This document shows positions 3,901-61,614 of a DNA stretch of 64,000 bases, piece after piece (positions within the stretch are counted from its first letter, which is position 1; every line of letters begins with the position of its first letter). The notes under the pieces are model-generated. The model ran no database searches, was not told where the DNA came from, and saw nothing but the letters and a program-made list of their open reading frames with translations. Source of the DNA: a virus; the IMG/VR virus record IMGVR_UViG_3300045988_020586. The stretch is one strand, 5' to 3'. The position numbers and the translations under genes are program-made.

Positions 3901-6900
3901 CTAGACTTGAATCAATATTCAGCTATAGAGAGTATAAGGCAGCTCAGAAGTTATCTAAAGATCTGAAGGATTAGAAAAGAAGGCTCTAGTTGATATCTAA
4001 TGAAACTGGAACAGATATTAATACCGATAAGCTTACTGGAATGATTGATTATCTTGATAAGCTTATAGAAAACAGAAGAAGTAAAGTAGAGAACTCTAAG
4101 GAGATACTTGCATACAATGAGAAGGTTGACTTATTAAACGCTTCTATAAGCGATAAAAAGAAGTAGTATAAGAAGATAACTTATGATTCTATCTTTAAGG
4201 ATTATTAGAATTTTGATAACCAGGATGAAATAGATAAAGCTTATTAGGCGTTTCTTATAAACGATGCTTTATACAACGTGCTCAAACCAATGTCTGTAGC
4301 GTTTACTACTGGACAAGTTGACCCTAGATCTGTATATTTTTCTAGAAGAGAATAGAACTGGAGCGAATTATCTGATGAACAAAAATCCGAATTCACTAAA
4401 AAAGTATAGGGTTTATATCAAGAGCAAGGCAAACAAGCTCCAACTGAAGCGTAGATAAGAGCTGCATACTTAAACGAACAAAACAAGAAGAGAAAATTCA
4501 TAAAAGAGTTATCTAAAAAATACGCAGAATTAAGAGATAAGATTGAAGGCAATGATGATATATCTAATATGAGTATGGATGATATCGCTCGTCTTACTGA
4601 TATGGAAAGAGAGGCAGCTAGAGATCTTATTAGCTCAGTTCTTGCCGACAAAAAGAATCGTATGCGTATAGCTCGTAGAGAATGGAATCAAGAAAGACCA
4701 CTTACACCAGATGATGTTTAGCAAGCTGAAGAAGGTACCGCCGATGAAGAAGTGACTCAGAGAATCAAAGATCTTGCTGGTGAGCCTAAGAGTCCAGATG
4801 TCGAGAAAGAAGCTGAAGATATGAATGTTCAGCCAATATCTTAGGATAAGTCTGTGCTTGATACATCTGAGCTTGATGCAGCTATGGATAATTCCCAGAA
4901 AGGTTCTACAGAAAACGAAAGAAATCTCGAAGAGGCTTTGGGTATGAGTCCTGCTGAAGATAAATAGCAGCAGAAACTTAGAGAGAAGCAGCAGAAATAG
5001 AAGGTTAAAGATAAAGAATAGTCTGATTCTACTAATTTTACAGATGAGAAAGATGATAATGATAGCAACGAATTACCACCTGTACCAGACAATGTAACAA
5101 TTAATGGCGATGGAACTGTAACTGTAAAGCCAGAAAAGTCTCAAGAAGCTTAGCAAAATAGCACAGATACTGGTGTTTAGGATAATACTGAAAAATAGCC
5201 TGAACAATAGCAGGTACAAGAAGGTGAAGAGCCAGAAGATGGAGATAATGATAATTCTCCAGATTTGACTCCAGATAAGAACACTGCTGATACAGGTCTT
5301 AATATTGAATAGATTTAGGATGATCAGGACTTTCCTGACGACAATCCAGAGGATGATAACAACGATGGCATAGATCAGATTCCTTAGAAAGAAGGCAAGA
5401 CAGCGTAGGTTTTGAATCCTAGTGATATTGATGTTGAAGATACTTTAAATACAGAAAGCCCTTTAGAACACGAAGAGCCAGAAGTGTTACCTAAGAAGTA
5501 CGATGATAACGGAACTTTAAATATAGAAGATCTTCCAGAAAAGTTAGATGTAGATATATAGAGTGAGTCTGATACTCTTAGTGATATGGATAATCAAACT
5601 GAGTCAACTGATACATCTGGAGCATATGACGATAGAAAACCTAAGCCATGGGCTGTGCAGGAAGCAGAAGACATAGAAAGAAGATATGCTGATCATACAT
5701 TCTTCTATAGACCTGATGCGGAAGAACCTATGAAGATAAAGGTTAATGGTAAAGATGTGAAGTTGCCAGAAGGGTGCACTATTGGCACCGGTGCAGAACT
5801 TGCACAGAAACTTACTTAGAAAGGCTGGTTTGAAAAAGCTGACAAGTTCTATGTTGTGTCATAGATGTAGAAATACTAGGAAGGAAATATTGGTGACGAA
5901 AGAGATGTGTTCACAGTATCTTTAGCCATAAGAGATGGTAATAAAATATACTTCTCTACACTTAGGGCGTTAGGATAGTATCATGATAACTACAGAAAAA
6001 CAGACGTTGATCTTTCATACGAGCTCGCTAATAAACTTAAATTTATAGGCGTCGATATGGATGCCTACAAGGTCAATCTGTTTGAGACTGCTAAAAATTA
6101 TTACTTACTTCATAATAATGTTGATCAATCTCTTCTAGAAAACGATGATAAACTGAATAAGGAAGTAATAGATTGGTATAACAACCTACATGAAAGTGAT
6201 CCAGAAAACGCCGGTTAGATACGTGCATATATAGACGATACTGCTAGAAATAAGTCCGCTCTTCCAGGCAAGGTTCCTTTGACAAATAATTAGGTTACAC
6301 AGCAAATATAGAGACTTAGAGATAATAGAAACGCCATAATTGAAGCATATTGTACATTTAAGGATGGTAAGTATATAATACCATAGACTATTAGAACTGA
6401 TGTAAAGCCACAAGAATCAAGTATAAGTAACGGTAAAATATAGACTAGGCCAAAACTTGAAAATAATCTTGTTGATTTTAGACCTCTTACAGAGAAAGAT
6501 TTAAATCTTGATATTCCTTCTGATCCAGAAGAACTTACAATGAAGCTTGAGAATGGCGCTATAACACTTGGTTATGGTACTGGAGTAATGGCTGATGAAG
6601 GTAACAGATTCCTTATTCGTAACCTCTACAATCCTTCTGGAGATACAATAGACGGTAAAGGCTATTCTGGTAAATTGTACTTTACAATAACCGGTCCTAG
6701 TGGATATGTTGTTCCTATAATGCTTAGAGAAGAAAGATTCAACTAGGTTTAGGGCAAAGATGGTAAGATGCAGTTTATTGATCCTGTTAATATGTAGTTA
6801 GCTATAGATCCAAATACAGGAAAGATAAATAGAAACACCCCATTATCTATGGCTGAGCTTATACTGTATATGGTTACCGGTAAGATTAATCCAGAAGAAT

Positions 6901-20000: not shown

Positions 20001-22864
20001 TAAATCCTTCTAAATTATAGAAGTCTATACAGAATAAAATACAAGAAATAGACAAAGAGTTAGCTAAGATTAGAAAGCAAGCTGTAAGAGAGGATAAAGA
20101 TTTAAAAAAGCTTGCTAAAAATCGTGCAAAAATTTTTAGAAAATACGCTAAATCTTCATTGACTGATGTGTATAAAGAAATGCGTAGATTGGCAGTTCTT
20201 AGAGACAAGGATGAGCCAGGCTATCTTGATACATTCGAAAGAAATACAGGTAGACTCGTAGAGGACGTAGAAGGAGAAATATCATGGTAGGCTAAACCTT
20301 GGTTTAGAAAAGTAGTCGCAAAGCAGGCTTACTACGACAGATTTATGGAAGTATTGCCAGGAGATGGTTATCTTAACTCTGATGAGAACAATGATTTGCT
20401 CGATAAGGATTTCGACGAGAGTTACGGATAGGCATTTGTGCCAAAGAAGGAATTATACGACAATTCTAATTAGTATAACAAGATTGTTAAATCGAAAACC
20501 CTTAAAGCTCTTTATGATAAGACATATCAAACAATTAAAGAGTCTAACGAATTGTAGACAAATAGAAACTATGTAGACAATTATCTTCTTCCATAGATAA
20601 CTGGCTCATTCTTTAAATACCTTAAAAAGCATAGCGGCAAATGGAGAATGGCTTGGGACTTTATCAAAACTGGAAATGTAGACCCATCTTCTTCTGGAGG
20701 TGCTCTTAGAGAATATTTCAAAGATACTGTTGGTATTGGAGAGAAAGGATGGGAGCAAGATGGCACATACGGATAGTTTATTGATTAGGCGTTGTCTGAC
20801 TAGGATTAGTTTGGGGATATCATCAACTCAAAAGATCCTACGTTCGGTAGCGAAATAAGTGGAGAGCGTCCAGATGGTAGACAGCTTAATATGATACCAC
20901 AGTACTATACCAGAAGACTTAAGGATACATCATAGCTTTCGTCTGATTTAATAGGTATACTTGGAGAGTACTACAACTAGTCTTAGAAATATAAGAACAA
21001 GAAGTAGATAGAAGCTACGTGCGAATCTATGGTTGATATGATTGAGAATAGAAATCATGAAAAGGTATCAATTACTGGTAGCATAGGTAATCTTAAGAGA
21101 ACTACTAGAAATGTTACTGGAAAGTCTTCTAATACATATAAGGCTGCTAGAAAATTCTTGGATATGAACCTATATAACATACGTTCTTCAAGAATGTAGG
21201 TAAACATATTCGGCAGATAGGTTAATATGGGCAAGATAGCTCAGTTATTTAGGGCTGCTACAACACTCGTAAACCTTGGCTGTAATATAGCTGTAGCCGG
21301 AACTGGTTTTACTACTGCTATATGGGCACATGTTGTAAATTCTATAGTTGGATAGAAATATAGTTTTTCAGATGCCTGCGCTGCCACTAGATTCGTCTTA
21401 CATCATTTGGTTGAAAATGGCATGGGCGCCAAATATATAGAAGATCGCAATTCTAAAGACCTATTGATGCTTATAATGGAGCATTTTAATATAGCAAGTC
21501 AGCTTGAGAGAAAAATGAAGGATTCGAATAGAAATAAGTTCATAAATGCCATAACTCATAACTGGGCATTCGGCGGTCTTACTATGTTTGACTTTTGTGC
21601 TAAGGCTCCTATAGCTATTTCTACTATAATGTCTTACAGATATTACAATGGAGAATTTACAACCAAGGATGACGTTATAATGAATAATATCCTTAATCCA
21701 GAAGAAGCTAAAAAGCGGATTAAAGAATGGAAAAAAGGAAAGAGTTTGCTGTCTATTATGAAAGAATAGAATGGTAAGCTTACTGTAGATAAACAGTATT
21801 ACAAATAGTATAAACAGATAGAAGACGTACTCCATTCTAGAATTGAGAGATATGCAGAAAATGCAGATGGTATGGCTACCGAATCACAAAAAGCTGCTAT
21901 TACAACAAATGCATTAGGTGCCGCAGTTTTAGTTCATAGGCAATATTTCCCTCTTATGCTTCAAGAGAGATTCGGCGATACTGTATGGGATAATTCTACT
22001 TAGCAATTTAAAGGCGGTTCATTTAGGTCTGGATTACAATTACTCAATGTGCTGTCTAAAGGATATTCTGATGAAGTAAACCTATAGAACTTTTAGGTGA
22101 ACAGAAAGAAGTCAGTCTTAACCGGTCTTGCAACAGGTGCAGCATTAGGCTCGTTTTTACCTATTGTAGGCCCTATGGCTGGTGTTGCTATAGGTTCTGC
22201 AATTGGCGCATTATTGGGCGCTAGAGCGAAAAATTCTAGGTCTTTACAGAGATATTTGTACGACAATTCATCAGAAAATTAGGCTAGATTGTGCAGATTT
22301 AGACGTCAGCAATTAAAACGTCTTGCGACTGAAATCGCTTTATACAAACTAGTTGTTTGCCCTGCTGTTGCCTTAATATGTGCATATGCCGACTCTGATG
22401 ATGATAATAAATTAATGTAGCTACTTGCATATATTGCTGTACGTACAAAATGGGAGGTATTCACTCCTTATCGTTTTGATGATGCATTAAATAACTTTAA
22501 ATCTGTATCAGCGTAGACTGGTACTTTGGATGCTTTTTAGAGCGTTGCTAAATCCGTTCCGGAATACGCATTATATTCCATCATGCCTCGAGGATCGCTA
22601 TTGGATACTTTCCTAGGTGGCTCCTTTAACGATTATGATTCAAGTATATAGCGAGGTATTTACTCTGATTACAATATTCCATTTACAGATACTGAATGGA
22701 ATAAAGCTTCAAGAGATATATTCAAAGCAACACCATTTCATCATGCTTATGAACAAATTCTTGACTCAAAGAGTAAAAGAAGCTATTACGAAAATCAAAT
22801 CATTCAAAATAAATCTTCAGATGACCCATTATATAATTGGGCTTTGGATAAGTTTAGTAAATAA
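17027..22864 (+). CDS. 1,945-codon virion/ejection protein with HExxH zincin motif and C-terminal Gly/Ala-rich hydrophobic segment; TAG read as sense
   Basis: ATG 17027 lies 2 nt after the previous stop; tandem TAA TAA at 22862-22867. Track ORFs 17885, 19745, 21407 and 22097 share this frame. Read by eye, only TAG interrupts it. HEIIH at 17777-17791; ..LTGLATGAALGSFLPIVGPMAGVAIGSAIGALLGA.. at 22097-22240. Confidence 0.75.
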
Positions 22865-26583: not shown

Positions 26584-27547
26584 ATTTCTGTAACGTTTTT
26601 GTTAACCAGTCTTTCATGGTGCTAAATCCGTTGTCACGAACAGCATCTGATAGATCTTTGGCTTTAAATTTCTTATTAATGAAAAAAGCATCTATATTGT
26701 ATTGTTTGCTATATTGTCTAGCCTTAAGCATACCTGTTTTATCTCTATCGTACAGTATAACTATATGTTTCCATTTGGAACGTAGAGACCTAAGTATATC
26801 TTCAGGTATAAATACAGTTTCACTAGCAGCAGCTATTGCATTAAAACCCATCTCGTAGCAACACATCACATCTTTCAGTGACTTTGTTATTATGAGCAGG
26901 TCGCCTCCTTCCTTAGGCAATTCGGATAATCCCTGTACGTGCCGATTTGTCAGATTGGTACGCCATTTAGTAAGCTTGGAAGCAAGTGGACGATAAATCT
27001 TAAACTTATCATACACTTTATATGCATACATAGGACTATTTTCTTTGTAGATACTTCGGACGATACTATTACAAAGAAAGTATTTAATGCTGAATACATT
27101 GAACTTTTTCAGAGTATCAATATGTATTCCAAACTGTTTCCAGTATTGTTTGTCTACATTGGTAAACGGCTGTCGAACTATTCCGATATCGGTATCTCCT
27201 TTCGGTATATCATACGTATTTGTCCTTACTGTTGTATTAGGATTTATTCTGCGTACGATTCTCAATAATTCTCGTTCAAGTTCTTCTCTAGTCGTTATAC
27301 CTTTGTATTCTTTTATGAACTTTAGAGCATTTCCATACTCTCCGGTTCCAAGGTCTTTCCATAGCAGTCCTCCGGTTTTGGAATGAAATATTCCAAATGA
27401 CGGGTTTTTATCTCCAGACCTTAAAGGACTATTCATAAGCTTTCCAACTTTGAATTGTCCTAGACAATACGTATAGATGTCTAAATCATTTACTTTGTCC
27501 AAGATGTCTCTCAAGGACATAGTAACTGCTGTTCTAGTACTATACAT
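26576..27547 (-). CDS. DNA primase (toprim-type)
   Basis: ..GDKNPSFGIFHSKTGGLLWKDLGTGEYGN.., ..LLIITKSLKDVM.. and ..ILYDRDKTG.. Sits among the replication genes. Confidence 0.6.
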   Translation of the reverse strand: MYSTRTAVTMSLRDILDKVNDLDIYTYCLGQFKVGKLMNSPLRSGDKNPSFGIFHSKTGGLLWKDLGTGEYGNALKFIKEYKGITTREELERELLRIVRRINPNTTVRTNTYDIPKGDTDIGIVRQPFTNVDKQYWKQFGIHIDTLKKFNVFSIKYFLCNSIVRSIYKENSPMYAYKVYDKFKIYRPLASKLTKWRTNLTNRHVQGLSELPKEGGDLLIITKSLKDVMCCYEMGFNAIAAASETVFIPEDILRSLRSKWKHIVILYDRDKTGMLKARQYSKQYNIDAFFINKKFKAKDLSDAVRDNGFSTMKDWLTKTLQKYD

Positions 27548-27670
27548 AACTTATAAGTTAGTGGGCGTCCACCGTCTCGAACCGTGACTATATATTTCTA
27601 TATTAGAGCTTCCCTTCCTCACGCCCTTATAAAAATGAGCAGTTTAATGACATGCTCAGGTCGCGACGGA

Positions 27671-27693
27671 TGGATAGTTTACGGACATATCCA
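27671..27693. repeat. Hairpin related to the GTTTTACAACA-loop family (family 3)
   Basis: TGGATA / GTTTACGGACA / TATCCA followed by GGTCGGGG. Same architecture as 43969-43989 and 44049-44069. Confidence 0.4.
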
Positions 27694-27846
27694 GGTCGGG
27701 GACTTCATTAGTACATCCCAGATCCAACTTAAGTATGGTTCACTCATGAAATCTGGCGCCCCAGGAGAACCGGGGTGCAATAAAAAGAGTGTGCACCTAT
27801 CCTCACGGACCGGAGTTTCCTGCATATATTTGTACCAATGAAATTG

Positions 27847-27943
27847 TGGCTATGCTAGGAATCGAACCTAGCAGAATGGACAAAAGAAAATACACTAAAA
27901 ATAAACCATTCTTGTCATGTGTCTCACGACACCCCGACTAGCC
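27847..27943 (-). ncRNA. 97-nt aberrant tRNA-like element
   Basis: Canonical T-arm CTAGG-TTCGATT-CCTAG. Acceptor GGCTAGT/CATAGCC pairs 5 of 7. D-like arm GTGTC-GTGA-GACAC has a 4-nt loop. A 7-bp stem AGAATGG/CCATTCT closes a 26-nt AU-rich loop. No assignable anticodon. Confidence 0.4.
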
Positions 27944-28139
27944 TTATTGGAGGCATTTCACCTCCAAAGGGTAACTGAATTACCTAGCTCCACCAACACC
28001 CTTTTATGGCAGTATTACCTCCCTTGGGTGTATCCACTTGTCGTATAGTTTGACACTCCTGCTATATAGACGGTATAAAAACCATCTACCGGATTTCATA
28101 CAATCAAGTAGTATTTCTATTTCTTCAGGCGTAAATCCC

Positions 28140-28745
28140 TTAAAAGGGAAGGTCAGATGCGCCTGCTGCATCCACAGTTTCCGGAGTAACGGTTGGTGGT
28201 ACATTAAGCGGATCGTTGTTCTCCTTATCAGCAACAACTGGACGCTCCATAAGGTCGTTCTTAAAGAGCTTAATCTGCGAATTTGTGTTAGACATGTCTT
28301 CAATGAAGATTCCGAGCTTACTTACCTGAGTATAGCCCTTCTTATCGTAAATAACCTTCAAACGGAGCTTCTTCTTAGTAGCGATCATAGGATCAAGCAT
28401 CTGCTTTGTCCAGTCGATCATCTCCTTAAATGTAGAAAGCTCTGCATCTGGTCTCTGTGGATAAAAACAGTCAAGAATCTGACAAACTCGTCCAAACTGA
28501 GCGTTATCACGCTTCTGCAGGTCTTCGTCTGTCTTAATATACATTCCCTTTGTATTCTTCCACTCTGTCATAGTAGCCGTCTGACCATCCTCATTCTCAA
28601 ATACGATCTCGAGGAAATCGAGACCCTGAGGAGACTTGTTACAGTTTACCTCTTTAAGAGTGATATTCTGGTTGATGCCTACTGGCATATAACTACCATT
28701 ACTAAATTCTTCGTTGTTAATTGCGGCTGTCTTTGTACTAAACAT
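28140..28745 (-). CDS. ssb: single-stranded DNA-binding protein
   Basis: 201 aa with a C-terminal acidic tip ..AAGASDLPF, as in the bacterial SSB D-D-D-I-P-F tail. Located between primase and a recombination ATPase. Confidence 0.7.
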   Translation of the reverse strand: MFSTKTAAINNEEFSNGSYMPVGINQNITLKEVNCNKSPQGLDFLEIVFENEDGQTATMTEWKNTKGMYIKTDEDLQKRDNAQFGRVCQILDCFYPQRPDAELSTFKEMIDWTKQMLDPMIATKKKLRLKVIYDKKGYTQVSKLGIFIEDMSNTNSQIKLFKNDLMERPVVADKENNDPLNVPPTVTPETVDAAGASDLPF

Positions 28746-37571: not shown

Positions 37572-39731
37572 ATCCTTTTTGATATCGTTATTGATTAACT
37601 AACGATATGATTTTTAAAATATGGTGTATTTTGGCTACACCTTTGCCGTTGTTTATTGAATAAAGCAACGCTGATACGAAGATACTCGGTTACTACTTTG
37701 CTTACTTAGTTTTCTAAAGAAAGTTCTACTATTGTAGACGCTTTTCATAGACTTAGCTACACTATTTCTACTACAACAATAGGGTAGTAGACTTGTAGCA
37801 GGAATTACGTACGTATGACGTAATTAACATTTACTGGATTATCCAGGCCCATCGTCTAAAGCTTTGAATGCTTTCTTTGCATAATCAAATGCTGAACTAT
37901 TTTCTGCTATTTTGTTCACGTTTTTTCTAACTTAACTATTCTAATCTTCGTTGGTGAAATTTTGCAGAGCAACTAACACTCATAGAATCTTAGAATCCTT
38001 ATAACCCACGAAAATATGTAGAATCTCGGTCGTATTTCCCTTACTATACTTACAAGATATTCCTACACGATTGTTATTAAAGCAGATGATCTCTACTGCT
38101 AACTTAAAAGCGACTGTCAGCTAGGTCTCCTTACTGCGGTACTCGGCTTATGGCATGTACCCAGCGGTTGGTTATCGGAATGTCTCAGGATCAAACCCAT
38201 CACAGACTTTACGGCTTTTTACATCTTTGCTGATGTTTGCAATTTTTCTGTACCGGTATTACTACCTCCTATTTATAGTGCACGAATATTGGGAATTCAA
38301 CCCATACATTTCATCTTGTCACCCACTTATAAACGTAATATACATGTATAGAGACAGTATACACATATAATATACACAGTCGTTTTACAACATAGAATAT
38401 AAGCTGCCCATCAATTTCCTGTATTGCTTCGAACCTTTGTGTTTACATATACTGTTGCACAGTATACTTTAGCATGGTTGGCATATCGGTTGGCACTCGA
38501 TTTCTTTACCTCAAGTCCTTACTTACAACGTAAGATACACTCTATAAAGGGACATCAATTTTTTGTTAAACATGTTACATTTTAAACTTTCTAGATTTTC
38601 ATAGTCTATATCTTTTGCATACAACATACGCATATATAATATACCAGCTTACTACTCTGTAGAGACTATATAATATTGCATATCATAATACAAATAGACT
38701 ATTGGTCTAAATTGTTTTGGATGAAAGTGGAGGTCAAATGATCCTGGCTGGATATATCTCGAATCAACTTTCTACCTATTTTGCTATTTCTTATTCTAGG
38801 ATAGCTTTCCATCAATTTTCTTTGACTGTAACGGAGTCATCGATCATAGTCTCATGAACGATTTAATTTTCATGGAAATTGGCTGTAAGTTCGGATTGCC
38901 TAACATCCTAATTGCAACTGGAATAGATTTTCACCGCGATCTTCACCCGCGTACGATACTCCCGTAGAGCTTCGATTAAGGGACTGCCCAACCCTTGTGC
39001 TTGTTTTACTTTTATATACCGCATAAACAAGAAAAGCCTGGCGGTCTACCATGAACTCAGACGTCTTACACCTCATCCCTGGCACCCCTTCAATGGAGTT
39101 GTGACGAATCGAACGTCAAGGACTATATGCCAACGTATTCACCATACGTCCCGTGAGTATTATCCTCACGATATTGCGTCTTAGATAAATTTTTCGGCCT
39201 TTATACTAGCTTTGGACACTAGAAACACTACCTACGGCTTAATAATACTTCTATATTGTTTGGGATATCCTCGGTTCTTCCAGCACCATGCACCATACCA
39301 TGTATGCAATTCTGTTCACCTACTGGGGACCAATATAGTTCATCTCGTGTAACGTTCGTGTATGCTTAGTATTATCACATACAATTCCGATACGGTTCAT
39401 TATGCCCTTCTTGGGACTTATGCGTTTTTAGATTACACAGCCTCATCCAGCTTGTCTCCAGACGGTTCTCACAAGTCCAGCTGTGTAATCTATAGGAGTT
39501 GATACAACGCTACTCCTACCTATATCAAACCGTTTCAATGTTTGATACATTTCATCCTACCTTTTGAGTGATCTCGCCCTGCAAGACAGGGTTAACATAT
39601 TCTCGGATCCAGTTTAATTTGATTGAGTTTTTCTTCTAGCTCCTTCGCGGGGGGATGTTCCAGAATAGTACGTAGACTAATGGGATCTACTATATGTACT
39701 TACCTAATTATAGCACATAGGGTTCTTATGT
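37572..39731. other. 2,160-nt ORF-free, hairpin-dense region (candidate ncRNA locus, origin or regulatory region)
   Basis: No ORF of 75 aa or more on either strand, even with TAG as sense. Many perfect inverted repeats, e.g. 37803-37825 (8 bp), 39431-39490 (11 bp) and 39577-39591. AT-rich core at 38560-38720. Confidence 0.6.
37672..37686. repeat. Family 1 motif TGATACGAAGATACT, copy D
   Basis: Exact 15-mer shared with 45143, 45314 and 45412. Lies about 100 nt upstream of the ATG of 36978-37571. The flanking stem is imperfect. Confidence 0.5.
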
Positions 39732-44180: not shown

Positions 44181-44798
44181 ATGGAACAGATAAAGAAATA
44201 TATGCAAAACAGAAAGTTAATAACTTTCGTTTGTGATTGTTGTGGAAAAGAAGCTCAAAAACCTCTTTCCGAATACAACAGAAACAAGAAACTTGGTAGG
44301 AAGAATTTTTGTAGTAGAAGTTGTGCAATTCGTTATGCTAATAAAAATAAATTACATACATTTACAGATAAATGTAGAGAACATCTTTTAAGTATTTGCA
44401 ACAATCAAATAGACGAATATACCGATTTTAGATATATCCTTAGAAGTGTCTATAAAAGATTTAAAGAAGTAGATATAGATTTAGAGTATCTAAAACAACT
44501 TTGGGAGACACAAAAAGGAATTTGCCCTTATACTGGTATAAAATTAAAGCTTCCAACATATAAAAGCCATAACTTCTATTTTGATTGTGCATCTTTAGAC
44601 AGAATAGATTCTTCTAAAGGCTACGTTAAAGGAAATGTTCAATTCATATCATTACCTATAAATTATATGAAATCTACTAAATCAGATATTGAAATCAGAC
44701 AATTTCTTAAACAAATTTCTTCTTACACTTCACATTTCTGCGAAGATGAGACTATCTCTTCACCTAAAGAGGTGTTGGGCGCTCGAGCTGGTAATTAA
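44181..44798 (+). CDS. HNH-family endonuclease, free-standing and opposite in orientation to its neighbours
   Basis: ..CASLDRIDSSKGYVKGNVQFISLPIN.. and N-terminal Cys pairs CDCCGKE..CSRSC. Start set at ATG 44181. Confidence 0.7.
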   Translation: MEQIKKYMQNRKLITFVCDCCGKEAQKPLSEYNRNKKLGRKNFCSRSCAIRYANKNKLHTFTDKCREHLLSICNNQIDEYTDFRYILRSVYKRFKEVDIDLEYLKQLWETQKGICPYTGIKLKLPTYKSHNFYFDCASLDRIDSSKGYVKGNVQFISLPINYMKSTKSDIEIRQFLKQISSYTSHFCEDETISSPKEVLGARAGN

Positions 44799-45137
44799 GA
44801 AGACTATACTTCTCCAGTAGTCGTTGCACTTTCTTGTGGTGTACCACAAGCTTAGCTCAGGGTTAGCATGAACAATACTAGCTTTGAGCTATTATTGTTT
44901 TTAGCCTTCCTTGAATTCACCCAATATGGGCTCGGTAAGAACCCCTGTCCAAACAGATTATTTCATACACACTGTACATTTGTTTTGTAAATGTCCTGAT
45001 GATCAGTCAGAACATTTGATTTAAACCACTTTAGGTGCGTTCTAAGGCATTTTTGCGACACTTGTGGTTAATTACTCCACTCGGTGACATACTCTGCCTC
45101 AGAATGCATTAGAACATGGTTGAAAATATATAGGAAT

Positions 45138-45163
45138 CCTCATGATACGAAGATACTTAGAGG
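45138..45163. repeat. Family 1 hairpin, copy A
   Basis: CCTC / ATGATACGAAGATACTTA / GAGG. Confidence 0.5.
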
Positions 45164-45304
45164 GCTATATTCAGCATTTTTGATACATTTTGCAGGGTTC
45201 GATTAACTTTCTCAGAGCAACCAAATCTCCCCGATACAAAGATACGCACAAAACATATTGTTTGATCTACTGTCCCAATTTATTGTGTGGGTTCACATCT
45301 CTTC

Positions 45305-45337
45305 TTCTCATCGTGATACGAAGATACTTGATGAGAA
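45305..45337. repeat. Family 1 hairpin, copy B
   Basis: TTCTCATC / GTGATACGAAGATACTT / GATGAGAA (8-bp stem). Confidence 0.6.
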
Positions 45338-45406
45338 TGTTAATTCATTCTGAGATTCCTTCACTGTCTCGTCCCTCGGGACCTCCTGTAGTACTTGAGA
45401 ATCTGT

Positions 45407-45431
45407 GTACGTGATACGAAGATACTTGTAC
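45407..45431. repeat. Family 1 hairpin, copy C
   Basis: GTAC / GTGATACGAAGATACTT / GTAC. Lies 12 nt beyond the stop of 45443-45937. Confidence 0.55.
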
Positions 45432-45442
45432 TAGAAGAAGAA

Positions 45443-50626: not shown

Positions 50627-50920
50627 TTACTTGTTAATTAAGTTGTCTACTTTGGATTTTGCTTCTAAGTAATCACTACCATAATCTGTTGCAAGATCTG
50701 TATCCATAAGATCAAGATTATGTGTTCCATTGAGAGAGTCAAGCAATGTTTCGACACATGTATAGTATCTTTCATATGCTTCTATCTTTTTCTCTGCTTT
50801 TTTGCCCTTACCTGTATGGTAATTTGACATAAAGCAGGCACCCACAAAGCAGCCTAATACTGCTCCTACTAACAATAAATTCATGTTGTCCATAAAACGA
50901 TGTACTTTATTCTTTTCCAT
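50627..50920 (-). CDS. hypothetical membrane-anchored protein (97 aa)
   Basis: Hydrophobic ..LLLVGAVLGCFVGACFM.. Confidence 0.5.
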   Translation of the reverse strand: MEKNKVHRFMDNMNLLLVGAVLGCFVGACFMSNYHTGKGKKAEKKIEAYERYYTCVETLLDSLNGTHNLDLMDTDLATDYGSDYLEAKSKVDNLINK

Positions 50921-50952
50921 ATATATAATTATTGATTAATATACATAATAAA

Positions 50953-50982
50953 AACGTGCCTATCTTCACAGACCAGCACGTT
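50953..50982. repeat. Family 2 hairpin, copy 1 (loop CTATCTTCACAGACCA)
   Basis: AACGTGC / CTATCTTCACAGACCA / GCACGTT. Confidence 0.65.
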
Positions 50983-51460
50983 GAGCATCGAAATAAAACC
51001 TACGTCACTTAGTAAAAGATGATGTAAGAAAATCGGTATGGTAAAAAACAAATTGAAGTGGTTACTGGACTCGAACCGTCGCTATGTTGCGCTTTACTAT
51101 AGCCAAGTACAATATCCATATAATGCATTTGTACATAGTATACCCTCTTGCTTTAGCAAGTGTATAATAACCACTATCCGTCTCTCCAGATTGTCATAGA
51201 GACTGGGTCTACATTTGACAGATTGCACCTTTTGCAAATAGGCTGTAGTTACCGTATCTCAGTTTTACACGTAAACCTATTGCCTATAGACGACTCACCC
51301 TCTGTGTTCTACAATCGACATCTTATAGCTTTGCAAGTACCATAAGCACGTGTTGTAGTCATGGGCTTGGGACCATGAACGCCACATTACTGCCTACGAT
51401 TTATCACGTTAGCGTAGGCGCTCCGTCATCCTAGTTTATATACCGCATGAGATAACGGTT

Positions 51461-51492
51461 TAATACAACTATCTTCACAGACCATTGTATTA
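51461..51492. repeat. Family 2 hairpin, copy 2
   Basis: TAATACAA / CTATCTTCACAGACCA / TTGTATTA. Confidence 0.65.
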
Positions 51493-51609
51493 TGAGGTCT
51501 ATTCGCGCTTTGAGTAATGAATCAGACTACACCATGATGCAACATGTGTAGTTTCGTCTAGGTCTCATCAGTGATGATTTTAGACTCTCCCTAGCTGAGT
51601 TTAAATAAA

Positions 51610-51641
51610 ACATACCACTATCTTCACAGACCATGGTATGT
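51610..51641. repeat. Family 2 hairpin, copy 3
   Basis: ACATACCA / CTATCTTCACAGACCA / TGGTATGT. Confidence 0.65.
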
Positions 51642-51791
51642 GCCAAACCTATTGTTGTTACACTTAACAACTACAACCTACATCCTAACTAAAAAACCTG
51701 ACATTTATTTGATTATTATACGTCTTTATTTGTCTTTCCAAATGCCAACGCTTATTTATACTCTTGCGTATAGAGTTATGTTATTATACAT

Positions 51792-51980
51792 TTAATCAAA
51801 AATGTAATATACTAACACCTTGTTTGCAGCCTTTACATACGAAATACAAGGTATATTCAATGATGAAGCAAACTTGTCTGCTAAATCATTGCCATCAAAC
51901 ATTATCTCGACACCAAATTCTGTTATTAAACAGTTTTGGATATCTTTGTTTGCTGCTCCATTCTCAATTATTGCTTTCAT
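51792..51980 (-). CDS. hypothetical protein (62 aa)
   Basis: Track ORF with ATG start, isolated between two ORF-free regions. Confidence 0.4.
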   Translation of the reverse strand: MKAIIENGAANKDIQNCLITEFGVEIMFDGNDLADKFASSLNIPCISYVKAANKVLVYYIFD

Positions 51981-60685: not shown

Positions 60686-61614
60686 AGAATATTGATACGT
60701 TATTGAGTATCAATGCAACCAACTCTATTCGCATATCGTTATGATGATATAACTAAACACAAAATATCATGATAACAAAAATTTGCAAACAATGTGGTAA
60801 GGAATTTGATGTACCAGAATACAGAAAGGATGCTAAATACTGCTGTGACGAATGTAAACACAAAGCACTGCATGGAGATTTAAATTGTGAGTGTGAGGTT
60901 TGTGGCAAGAAATTCCACTTAAAACCATACGCTCTTAAAAAGAGTAAACATCATACATGTAGCCGCGAGTGTTTAAACAAACTTAAAAGTACATTATATA
61001 AAGGTGAAGGAAATCATCAATATGGTCTAAAAGGCGATAAGAATTCATCTTTCAAAGGAAACGTAATCCTGCGTAAGAACAATGGACTAATCGAGAGAAT
61101 GATCTACAATCCTAGACACCCATACGCTGATCGTAATGGTAGGATTAAGGAACACAGATTAATAGTTGAGCAGAATTACAAAATGTTTGACGATAAATAC
61201 TTTGAAGTTATAAACGGAGAGCATTATTTAAAGAAGAATGTAGATGTACATCACATTAACTTTAATCATAACGATAATAGAATAGAAAACCTAATTCCCT
61301 TGACTAGAGCGGAACATACAAAGCTTCATAACCAAAATGAAGTTATATACAGAAATGAGAAGGGAATGATAATTGGTGTCTTAAAACAGGGTGAATTGCT
61401 GGAAAAGCCTGAAGAGGTCAATCAGCAGCCAAGCTTGGGTAGTGATACCCTTGAAGGTTCAGAGACTAACAGCCGAGTCTTACGAGACAGTAATGCTGAC
61501 ACGAGTGCCCTGCCCGGAAACGGTGAAGATATAGTCCGATCTACTGATAACAAAATAAACAGTAGAAATATAGAGATAAAGAGCTCTATAGATTAACAAC
61601 TCCTAATTTTGTTG
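60686..61614 (+). mobile_element. Group I intron (about 929 nt) in dut, carrying an HNH ORF
   Basis: It separates GVIDA from DYRGEI. Exon 1 ends in U (gcT) and the intron ends in G (ttgttG). Core-like CAGAGACTAA (61460-61469) and GAAGATATAGTCC (61525-61537), plus UACG- and GAAA-capped helices in between. Confidence 0.7.
60769..61596 (+). CDS. HNH homing endonuclease (275 aa), intron-encoded
   Basis: N-terminal Cys clusters and ..VDVHHINFNHNDNRIENLIPLTRAEHTKLHN.. Its 3' third overlaps the intron core. Confidence 0.75.
   Translation: MITKICKQCGKEFDVPEYRKDAKYCCDECKHKALHGDLNCECEVCGKKFHLKPYALKKSKHHTCSRECLNKLKSTLYKGEGNHQYGLKGDKNSSFKGNVILRKNNGLIERMIYNPRHPYADRNGRIKEHRLIVEQNYKMFDDKYFEVINGEHYLKKNVDVHHINFNHNDNRIENLIPLTRAEHTKLHNQNEVIYRNEKGMIIGVLKQGELLEKPEEVNQQPSLGSDTLEGSETNSRVLRDSNADTSALPGNGEDIVRSTDNKINSRNIEIKSSID

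Follow-up and report, generated by a model that had tools for sequence, protein, structure and literature searches.

The Bacteroides-1 RNA motif (Rfam RF01694) is typically located downstream of exopolysaccharide genes, and its authors left the function open, stating that it "may act in trans" (Weinberg et al., 2010; PMC2864571). In the published seed alignment, its first hairpin reads CUUAU-GGGUAUG(C/U)GAAUAUAG-AUAAG (PMC2864571). Here we describe a hairpin with the same tip architecture that occurs three times between positions 50953 and 51641 of the IMG/VR virus record IMGVR_UViG_3300045988_020586, a stretch of 64,000 nt that was analyzed as a whole and is called the window in the following. 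According to our analysis, the hairpin is a widespread and apparently undescribed RNA motif of phages and prophages that is related to Bacteroides-1 and distinct from it. A full-text literature search with the hairpin sequence in RNA or DNA form returned no occurrence, no description of it was found in the literature on RAGATH, phage and tRNA, on theta ribozymes or on crAss ribozymes, and the sequence is not present in the supplement of Fremin 2021. Searched against Rfam, RAGATH families included, the hairpins gave no match at E<=10. Later work on Bacteroides-1 was likewise not found in a literature search.

The plus strand of the window contains the 16-mer CTATCTTCACAGACCA exactly three times (50960-75, 51469-84 and 51618-33), a count that was reached by no shuffle; on the minus strand the 16-mer reads UGGUCUGUGAAGAUAG. 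A preliminary description of the stretch had reported three hairpins in which this 16-mer is closed by unrelated stems of 7-8 bp (AACGTGC/GCACGTT, TAATACAA/TTGTATTA and ACATACCA/TGGTATGT), and we confirm them at 50953-82, 51461-92 and 51610-41. It had further placed all three in a gap free of open reading frames (ORFs) at 50921-51791 and noted T-rich tracts after copies 1 and 3. Both observations hold: the gap of 871 nt, adjoined by minus-strand genes, contains only short ORFs of at most 61 amino acids, and on the minus strand UUUUUAUUAU follows copy 1 and UUUAUUUA follows copy 3. Copy 3 (51610..51641, minus strand) is the first in the direction of transcription and carries the apical module UGGUCUGUGAAGAUAG on the lower stem ACAUACCA/UGGUAUGU (47.4 bits with the covariance model R1; minimum free energy (MFE) -15.7 kcal/mol, z -3.8). 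It is directly followed by the U-rich tract UUUAUUUA (51602..51609, minus strand) in a terminator-like arrangement, and the tract is kept at loci L023, L051 and L264. Copy 2 (51461..51492, minus strand) has the same apical module on the lower stem UAAUACAA/UUGUAUUA and no U-tract (45.7 bits; MFE -11.4 kcal/mol, z -3.5). Copy 1 (50953..50982, minus strand), the last in the direction of transcription, has the lower stem AACGUGC/GCACGUU (48.2 bits; MFE -15.3 kcal/mol, z -3.7) and a U-tract, …GCACGUUUUUAUUAU (50946..50952, minus strand), with the start codon of the next gene (50920) ~30 nt beyond.

The preliminary description treated the 16-mer as an open loop of 16 nt, and this is where our analysis departs from it. 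The 16-mer is predicted to form an apical helix under a GUGA tetraloop, and covariation agrees. From the base upward, the predicted fold consists of the lower stem, a U·G pair, a 1x1 G•A mismatch, a G·U pair, the pairs U-A, C-G and U-A, and the GUGA tetraloop; folded with this extended helix, the window copies reach an MFE of -11.4 to -15.7 kcal/mol (z about -3.5 to -3.8). The consensus of the apical module, from 5' to 3', is Y1·G16, G2•A15, G3·U14, U4-A13, N5-N12 and Y6-R11, capped by G7-U8-G9-A10 of the GNRA type. Below it, the lower stem of 5-10 bp varies freely, for a whole hairpin of 12-14 bp.

To an alignment of 63 diverse copies, picked regardless of their inner positions, the helix fits throughout. 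Pair 5-12 is formed in 63/63 copies as CG (40), UA (14), UG (4), AU (3) or GC (2), pair 6-11 is formed in 63/63 as UA (33) or CG (30), and the seven lower-stem pairs display all Watson-Crick types. The covariation score of these 63 copies is 0.94, compared with 0.23 for shuffles and at most 0.20 when partners are slid. In a first alignment, 96% of the cells were paired, six lower-stem pairs showed all four Watson-Crick types, and 0/500 shuffles were equal to it. At position 2-15, most copies have G•A and some have A•A, C•A, U-A or C-G; now and then both sides are deleted. A relaxed-pattern search returned 151 hairpins, 122 of them with a GUGA tetraloop; GCGA and GAGA were rare, and the remaining loops are probably chance matches. 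At orthologous positions in crAss relatives the flanks are kept and the lower stems are swapped: the lower stems of copy 3 orthologues differ, and at copy 1 the stems are replaced (GGUAUAU, GGCAUAU) and the tip varies as well. Other tips at the same loci are UGGUUCGUGAGAAUAG, CGGUUCGUGAGGAUAG, UGGUAUGUGAAUAUAG and UGGUACGUGAGUAUAG.

The strand of the hairpin can be read from its wobble pairs. In lower stems that were selected blind to strand, G·U pairs exceed A·C mismatches by 62 to 16, and the structure is therefore one of RNA on the strand that reads UGGUC. This indicates that the hairpin is transcribed from the minus strand of the window. Several resemblances were considered and set aside. 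Those to the 5' strand of Y RNA (UGGUCCGA…) and to SRP RNA helix 8 (GGUCCGGAAGGAAGCAG) were dropped, as the pairing partners differ. A K-turn was dismissed because there is no 3-nt bulge, a "UGU" substrate of TGT because the C6 variant has no UGU, and a T-loop in view of the covariation of pair 6-11; the helix is too short to make an RNase III site likely.

The preliminary count of three stands for full hairpins, but a fourth copy of the apical module, CGGUCCGUGAGGAUAG, had been overlooked at 27797..27812 on the minus strand. Embedded in a larger RNA that is non-coding and conserved, it lacks a clean lower stem and differs from the 16-mer of the three hairpins by a double change from U-A to C-G; its context is kept in 7 other crAss-like contigs. 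The surrounding large non-coding region (~27500-28150, minus strand) is conserved in at least 7 crAss-like contigs and holds a tRNA-like 3' end (CTAGGTTCGATTCCTAG-CATAGCC-ACA), a GGUGUC-GUGA-GACAC hairpin, the apical module and several further hairpins; an Rfam search with this region gave no match at E<=10. Among the sub-threshold matches to the hairpin model in the window, the best is that at 21067-21095 on the plus strand (16.7 bits; AUCAAUUACUGGU…AUAGGUAAUCUUA). The lower part of the module is present there under a 3-nt top, and the match is probably due to chance. We also looked for a general preference for GUGA tetraloops in the window and did not see one.

The first hairpin of Bacteroides-1 contains the same apical module, with G·U, U-A, A-U and U-A under G(U/C)GA and the G•A and N·G layers below. 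A tip of the form RUAU-GYGA-AUAU above a 1x1 mismatch has the same architecture as the tip of the window hairpins, GUCU-GUGA-AGAU, which has C-G at the covarying pair, and the phage variant UGGUAUGUGAAUAUAG (GUAU-GUGA-AUAU) is identical in its tip to Bacteroides-1. Bacteroides-1 and the phage hairpins are both associated with Bacteroidales, and Bacteroides-1 and the prophage copies are both flanked by a GU-rich tract and then a GUGA-capped terminator. In the seed (PMC2864571, supplementary file 89), the 3' flank UUGCAUAGUAGUUUUGUCGUGUUUUAUUUUGUGUUUGUGUUGUGA is highly conserved and followed by the GUGA-capped terminator; similar GU-rich tracts precede the Bacteroides prophage hairpins, and AUAGUAGAUUUUGUUUC precedes the copy 3 orthologues in crAss relatives. 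Other parts of Bacteroides-1 are absent from the flanks of all three copies, namely the 5' AUGCAAAUC…CCUGA, the second hairpin UAUGCC…GGCA and the 3' GGUAAGA (RGnAAGA). The phage hairpins are therefore not members of this motif, and a search of window positions 50800-51900 against RF01694 gave no match at E<=10. The copy 2 orthologue of crAssphage cr7_1 matches RF01694 weakly because it has the same apical module (21.2 bits, gathering score 43), with the extra conserved parts poorly aligned. Unlike Bacteroides-1, the phage copies have free lower stems, are present several times, and are located beside tRNAs and ribozymes instead of downstream of exopolysaccharide genes.

The three copies are shown here to mark off the modules within an island of non-coding RNA of ~750 nt. 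On the minus strand, the order is copy 3 with its U-tract, a RAGATH-1 hammerhead ribozyme, copy 2, a twister-like element, ~300 nt of RNA, copy 1 with its U-tract, and the gene. The hammerhead (51520..51601, minus strand) belongs to Rfam RF03152 with 71.9 bits against a gathering score of 56.3 and has a complete core (CUGAUGA…GAAA); it is predicted to cleave after C51525 (GUAGUC↓UGAUU), a position taken from the family consensus, and has orthologues at L023, L420 and L329. The twister-like ribozyme of type P5 (51361..51427, minus strand) carries the hallmark CAUGGUCCCAAGCCCAUG and GUAAUG and scores under the threshold of its family (RF02684; 23.6 bits, gathering score 37.6, E=0.02). Its stem is altered on both sides at L273, from CCUACG/CGUAGG to UCUACG/CGUAGA, and its orthologue in cr7_1 reaches 21.8 bits. 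The following ~300 nt (51050..51360, minus strand) represent an unannotated and probably structured RNA that ends in the T-arm-like GGUUCGAGUCC (also written GCGACGGTTCGAGTCCAGTAACCA). Part of it (GTACTTGCAAAGCTAT…) is conserved at L329, a Bacteroidaceae metagenome-assembled genome contig, and an Rfam search with this region gave no match at E<=10. RAGATH, a name said to come from work of Weinberg et al. in 2015, reportedly stands for RNAs associated with genes associated with twister and hammerhead, and the hairpins share this neighborhood, with a RAGATH-1 hammerhead (71.9 bits) and a twister-like element in the same island.

The region of the window is 77% identical to crAssphage cr7_1 (Crassvirales; Suoliviridae; Burzaovirus), where the orthologous island lies inside a 1.26-kb stretch without any annotated feature and contains four hairpin copies, a hammerhead and a twister-like element. 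Plus-strand genes from 1 to ~22 kb (1-22000) are unbroken only with TAG as a sense codon, and long-ORF coverage of 1-22000 on this strand rises from 0-0.17 to 0.86-1.0 once TAG is read in this way. This requirement identifies a recoded phage, and the window is thus a TAG-recoded, crAss-like and Suoliviridae-like phage. A CUA suppressor tRNA was not detected in the window, nor was a suppressor tRNA hidden in the RNA island, although ARAGORN was also run with relaxed settings.

Beyond the crAss-like phages, the hairpin is found in a wide range of viral stretches and in bacterial genomes. Loci were gathered with exact-match seeds, and all locus counts are lower bounds. At least 120 IMG/VR stretches contain the exact 16-mer, and of its 123 occurrences there, 114 sit within stems of 5-10 bp that are unrelated in sequence; the variant CGGUCCGUGAGGAUAG occurs in at least 119 further IMG/VR stretches. 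Among genomes taken one per GTDB species, there were 119 exact matches, 35 of them with a stem. Stem-bearing matches with a legible record title are from Bacteroidales in 16 of 22 cases, prophages included; the stemless matches are scattered over unrelated taxa, as expected by chance.

The genomic context was surveyed for 125 distinct copies with enough flank, with tRNAs called by ARAGORN. A tRNA starts 2-13 nt past the hairpin base (median 4) in 25/125, a T-loop-like sequence lies within 130 nt of 19 more, and a hammerhead core was detected within 80 nt of seven. An opposite-strand tRNA lies near the hairpin only once. The hairpin is directly followed by a T-run in 37 of the 125 copies (30%), and such runs are rare where a tRNA is adjacent (2/25 vs 35/100; Fisher p=0.007); 51-61% of the first 5 nt downstream are T. 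A positioned promoter or other flanking motif was not found, the flanks being merely U-rich and C-poor. At L090, the site of a type III hammerhead (CUGUC↓) lies 5 nt past one hairpin and a tRNA starts 2 nt past another, and at L067 an Rfam Hammerhead_3 is located downstream of the hairpin. Behind hairpins with the C variant (L127, L137, L142, L151, L221 and others), at a distance of 4-6 nt, comes a mini tRNA-like element that lacks a D-arm. These elements comprise ~60 nt with a 6-bp acceptor-like stem, a small hairpin and a 7-bp T-arm with GGTTCGAGTCC, and are situated ~25 nt upstream of a gene start.

The Bacteroides copies sit in a prophage, where four tRNA-like genes and two hairpins precede an operon of Rad52-like, SSB, helicase and NinG genes. 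In this prophage of Bacteroides bouchesdurhonensis (L380), the four-gene tRNA-like cluster spans 5490-6260 on the minus strand; one of its tRNA-like genes apparently has a tetraloop in place of the anticodon loop, and the spacers contain several more GUGA-capped hairpins. Clustering of 2,811 ORFs near 222 loci did not yield a shared neighbor protein, as only lineage-specific families were obtained and none extended across phage classes. By the look of their sequences these families include a CI-like repressor, Rad52-like proteins and SSB, with the L380 set being the only one checked against Pfam.

What could the hairpin do? We tentatively favor, at somewhat short of an even chance, a cis-acting boundary, 3'-end-protecting or terminator hairpin, the tip of which is a recognition handle for a putative host factor. 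The hairpin would then act as a cis-acting "punctuation" element, by which the upstream RNA comes to end in a hairpin plus a short tail. With a U-tract behind it, as in copies 3 and 1, it may bring about intrinsic termination or attenuation. In other phages, the hairpin base would be followed after 2-13 nt by a hammerhead cleavage site or by the RNase P site of a tRNA or tRNA-like gene. In either situation, the tail left 3' of the hairpin would be too short for the loading of a 3'-exonuclease. Such adjacency was observed in the 25 of 125 copies next to a tRNA, in the 19 with a T-loop-like sequence, and at L090 and L067; in the window, the predicted cuts are ~70-85 nt away. RNase P-defined 3' ends with a protective structure upstream are known from the MALAT1 triple helix with mascRNA and from the "tRNA punctuation" of mitochondria. 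In the copies next to tRNAs, too, a stable structure lies a few nucleotides (2-13 nt) upstream of a tRNA or tRNA-like element, and an RNase P cut at the tRNA 5' end would leave the upstream RNA with a protected 3' end. MALAT1 has a triple helix whereas the phage hairpin is a simple one in a bacterial and phage setting, and the likeness is one of logic alone.

The invariant tip would be the handle by which the putative host factor recognizes the element. The tip is held more constant than stability alone would demand, and a role as recognition handle is therefore probable; this excess conservation, taken together with the recurrence of the module in the RNA at 27.8 kb and in the host small RNA (sRNA) motif, suggests a trans-acting partner.

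Several points weigh against the punctuation reading. The function of the hairpin is deduced from its position alone, and end protection by itself leaves the conservation of the G•A mismatch, the G·U pair and the GUGA loop unexplained. The conservation of the tip, including the invariance of G3·U14 and U4-A13, is partly an artifact, because the loci were found with exact seeds. In the window, no U-tract follows copy 2 (…UUGUAUUAAACCG), and no copy lies directly upstream of a predicted cleavage site or next to a tRNA, the predicted hammerhead cut being ~85 nt past copy 3 and the predicted twister cut ~70 nt past copy 2. With the next structured RNA or gene within 8-35 nt of copies 1 and 3, some read-through is required, and a terminator just before a tRNA or ribozyme (copy 3; L034, L025) implies the same. 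Elsewhere, a recognized downstream element is absent in ~30% of the copies. Finally, no protein family is common to the phage classes, and the proposed partner is therefore hypothetical.

It is possible, if on balance unlikely, that the tip is a handle with another job, bound by a host or phage protein or by RNA polymerase itself. The hairpin might then promote processive antitermination across the untranslated island, mark the stable RNAs of the phage, or be set free as a small and abundant leader RNA that titrates an RNA-binding protein or RNase of the host. The conservation of the tip past the need for stability, with the G•A mismatch and wobble pairs included, would suit such a role, as would the module without a lower stem inside a larger RNA (27797-27812) and its presence in the host Bacteroides-1 sRNA motif. 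The islands are located upstream of protein operons on the same strand, and if transcription began just upstream of the hairpin, RNase P or hammerhead cleavage 2-13 nt past it would release it as an RNA of ~35-40 nt. Boxes resembling TAnnTTTG were found within 25 nt upstream of 9/125 copies, with ~1.4 expected by our own composition estimate, but there is no sharp promoter signal at a fixed distance. Lambda-type nut boxB and HK022 put are antiterminator RNAs, and the likeness to them is that of a short hairpin near the promoter, its GNRA-type loop resting on a U-A pair, within the untranslated leader of early operons in phages; the copies of prophage L380 ahead of the Rad52, SSB and NinG genes have a nut-like placement. 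Unlike nut and put, the hairpin is present in several copies per island, many of which have their own U-tract, needless for an antiterminator, and its conserved helix is longer than that of boxB. Neither a boxA equivalent nor an N-like protein was identified, no search having been aimed at either, and with no protein family across phage classes this reading has no candidate partner.

We consider it unlikely that the hairpins are ordinary intrinsic terminators or stabilizers whose shared tip goes back to common descent and to dispersal with mobile tRNA and ribozyme cassettes rather than to a specific function. A stable hairpin followed by a U-tract, as in an intrinsic terminator, is seen in copy 1 (GCACGUUUUUAUUAU) and copy 3 (UGGUAUGUUUUAUUU), which look canonical, and GNRA tetraloops are common in stable hairpins. 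The preliminary suggestion of terminators thus fits these two copies and the 30% of copies elsewhere that have a T-run directly behind them, in line with the 51-61% T in the first 5 nt; it fails for copy 2, which has no U-tract, and 70% of the copies elsewhere have no T-run, many of them abutting the 5' end of a tRNA. Intrinsic terminators are not known to have a sequence-conserved tip across unrelated phages, and here the tip is kept while the lower stems differ wholly within one genome. Orthologues alter the inner pairs by compensatory changes only, the destabilizing G•A and G·U are retained, and the tip recurs in contexts that are not those of a terminator.

A more specific proposal, which we regard as doubtful, is that the hairpin is a phage-borne copy of a host module, the Bacteroides-1 tip, that recruits or titrates a putative RNA-binding protein or RNase of Bacteroidales and is freed in many copies as small hairpin RNAs by RNase P and ribozymes. 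If true, it would be an RNA-based way for gut phages, crAss-like phages included, to mark their own stable RNAs, and it could disarm a host RNA-processing or defense factor. In the crAss lineage, the complementary hairpins of a second family could then additionally pair with it.

This second family, Family 1 of the preliminary description (the hairpins treated above being its Family 2), was said to have loops with GAAGATA, and this is true of GTGATACGAAGATACTT on the plus strand at ~45142-58, 45313-29 and 45411-27, with a related copy at 37678. The best-formed hairpin is UUCUCAUC-AAGUAUCUUCGUAUCAC-GAUGAGAA (45305..45337, minus strand); further ones lie at ~45410-33 and 45140-65, and the related copy near 37678. 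The two families were proposed to form a network of kissing loops, i.e., the Family 2 tips would pair with the Family 1 loops (AAGUAUCUUCGUAUCAC) in same-strand transcripts, and kissing or extended duplexes would couple the two RNA islands. We judge this very unlikely. It has in its favor that both families are RNA hairpins of the minus strand, as had been supposed and as their wobble pairs indicate (G·U 62 vs A·C 16 in Family 2; U·G wobbles in the stems of Family 1), that the complementary stretch can be lengthened to 10 bp if two G·U pairs are allowed (UGUGAAGAUA / UAUCUUCGUA), and that the families co-occur in the crAss lineage, where Family 2 is present in the fetched flank of 10/35 loci that have more than one Family 1 copy. 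The bases that would have to be unpaired are not: in Family 2, G9-A15 (GAAGAUA) belong partly to the tetraloop and partly to the 3' side of a helix that covaries, and the Family 1 loop also folds into an apical mini-helix according to folding prediction. Furthermore, in contigs with the exact Family 1 loop, the copy 1 orthologues read UGGUUCGUGAGAAUAG, which breaks the duplex while Family 1 is unchanged.

The distribution of the two families points in the same direction. A search of relatives for both loops had been recommended, and of its two objects the spread of Family 2 is evident and the co-occurrence is not, since Family 1 is near only 4/239 Family 2 loci and hundreds of contigs have Family 2 without Family 1. 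Family 1 was found in 63 stretches, nearly all from one crAss-like lineage, compared with at least 238 viral stretches plus Bacteroidales genomes for Family 2. Because both families are oriented on the same strand, the alternative that they are one protein-binding site in opposite orientations is excluded. A further loop at 38935-38951 (ATCTTCACC), which had been listed as related, does not match the covariance model and was rejected as a family member; it lies inside a weak tRNA-Phe(GAA)-like call (38898-38980, minus strand) made only with relaxed ARAGORN (-ps85). Family 1 itself seems to punctuate a second RNA island in an analogous way. In the window (region 44728-45440, minus strand), its hairpins are located just upstream of a group I intron match (81 bits), and in relatives they are upstream of permuted-tmRNA matches (RF04321, 63-64 bits; L023 6173-6408 and L298 7629-7864). 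A second group I intron match (65.2 bits) was observed in the window at 61316-61557 on the plus strand.

That the motif works at the level of DNA, as a hairpin formed by single-stranded DNA, as a boundary of recombination or of cassettes, or as a site akin to an origin, is highly improbable. The modules that it flanks, tRNAs and ribozymes, do differ between related phages, and several copies are present per island, but G·U outnumbers A·C by 62 to 16, and on the opposite strand G3·U14 and U1·G16 would turn into A·C mismatches. In addition, the orientation of the hairpin tracks the neighboring RNA genes, with an opposite-strand tRNA in 1/125, and T-runs occur on one side only. Hardly credible is a new small self-cleaving ribozyme, or an accessory or substrate element of one following the RAGATH logic, since the motif, although it adjoins hammerhead or twister ribozymes in several unrelated contexts and has GUC in its tip, is a regular tetraloop hairpin of 12-14 bp with no junction like a catalytic core, and most copies lie beside tRNAs or U-tracts and not ribozymes.

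The motif is compact and searchable, with a consensus of ~34 nt. It flags islands of non-coding RNA, including tRNA arrays, tRNA-like genes and hammerhead or twister ribozymes, in crAss-like and other gut phages of Bacteroidales, islands which reference records such as that of cr7_1 leave blank. Even if the hairpin is a mere terminator or stabilizer, the annotation of these phages is improved and the reading of a "kissing loop" is corrected. The motif links the phage islands to the orphan host motif Bacteroides-1 through a shared hypothesis, that of a common partner for the GUGA-capped tip. It also provides an entry point to the role of self-cleaving ribozymes and tRNA-like RNAs of phages and to the processing of phage transcripts.

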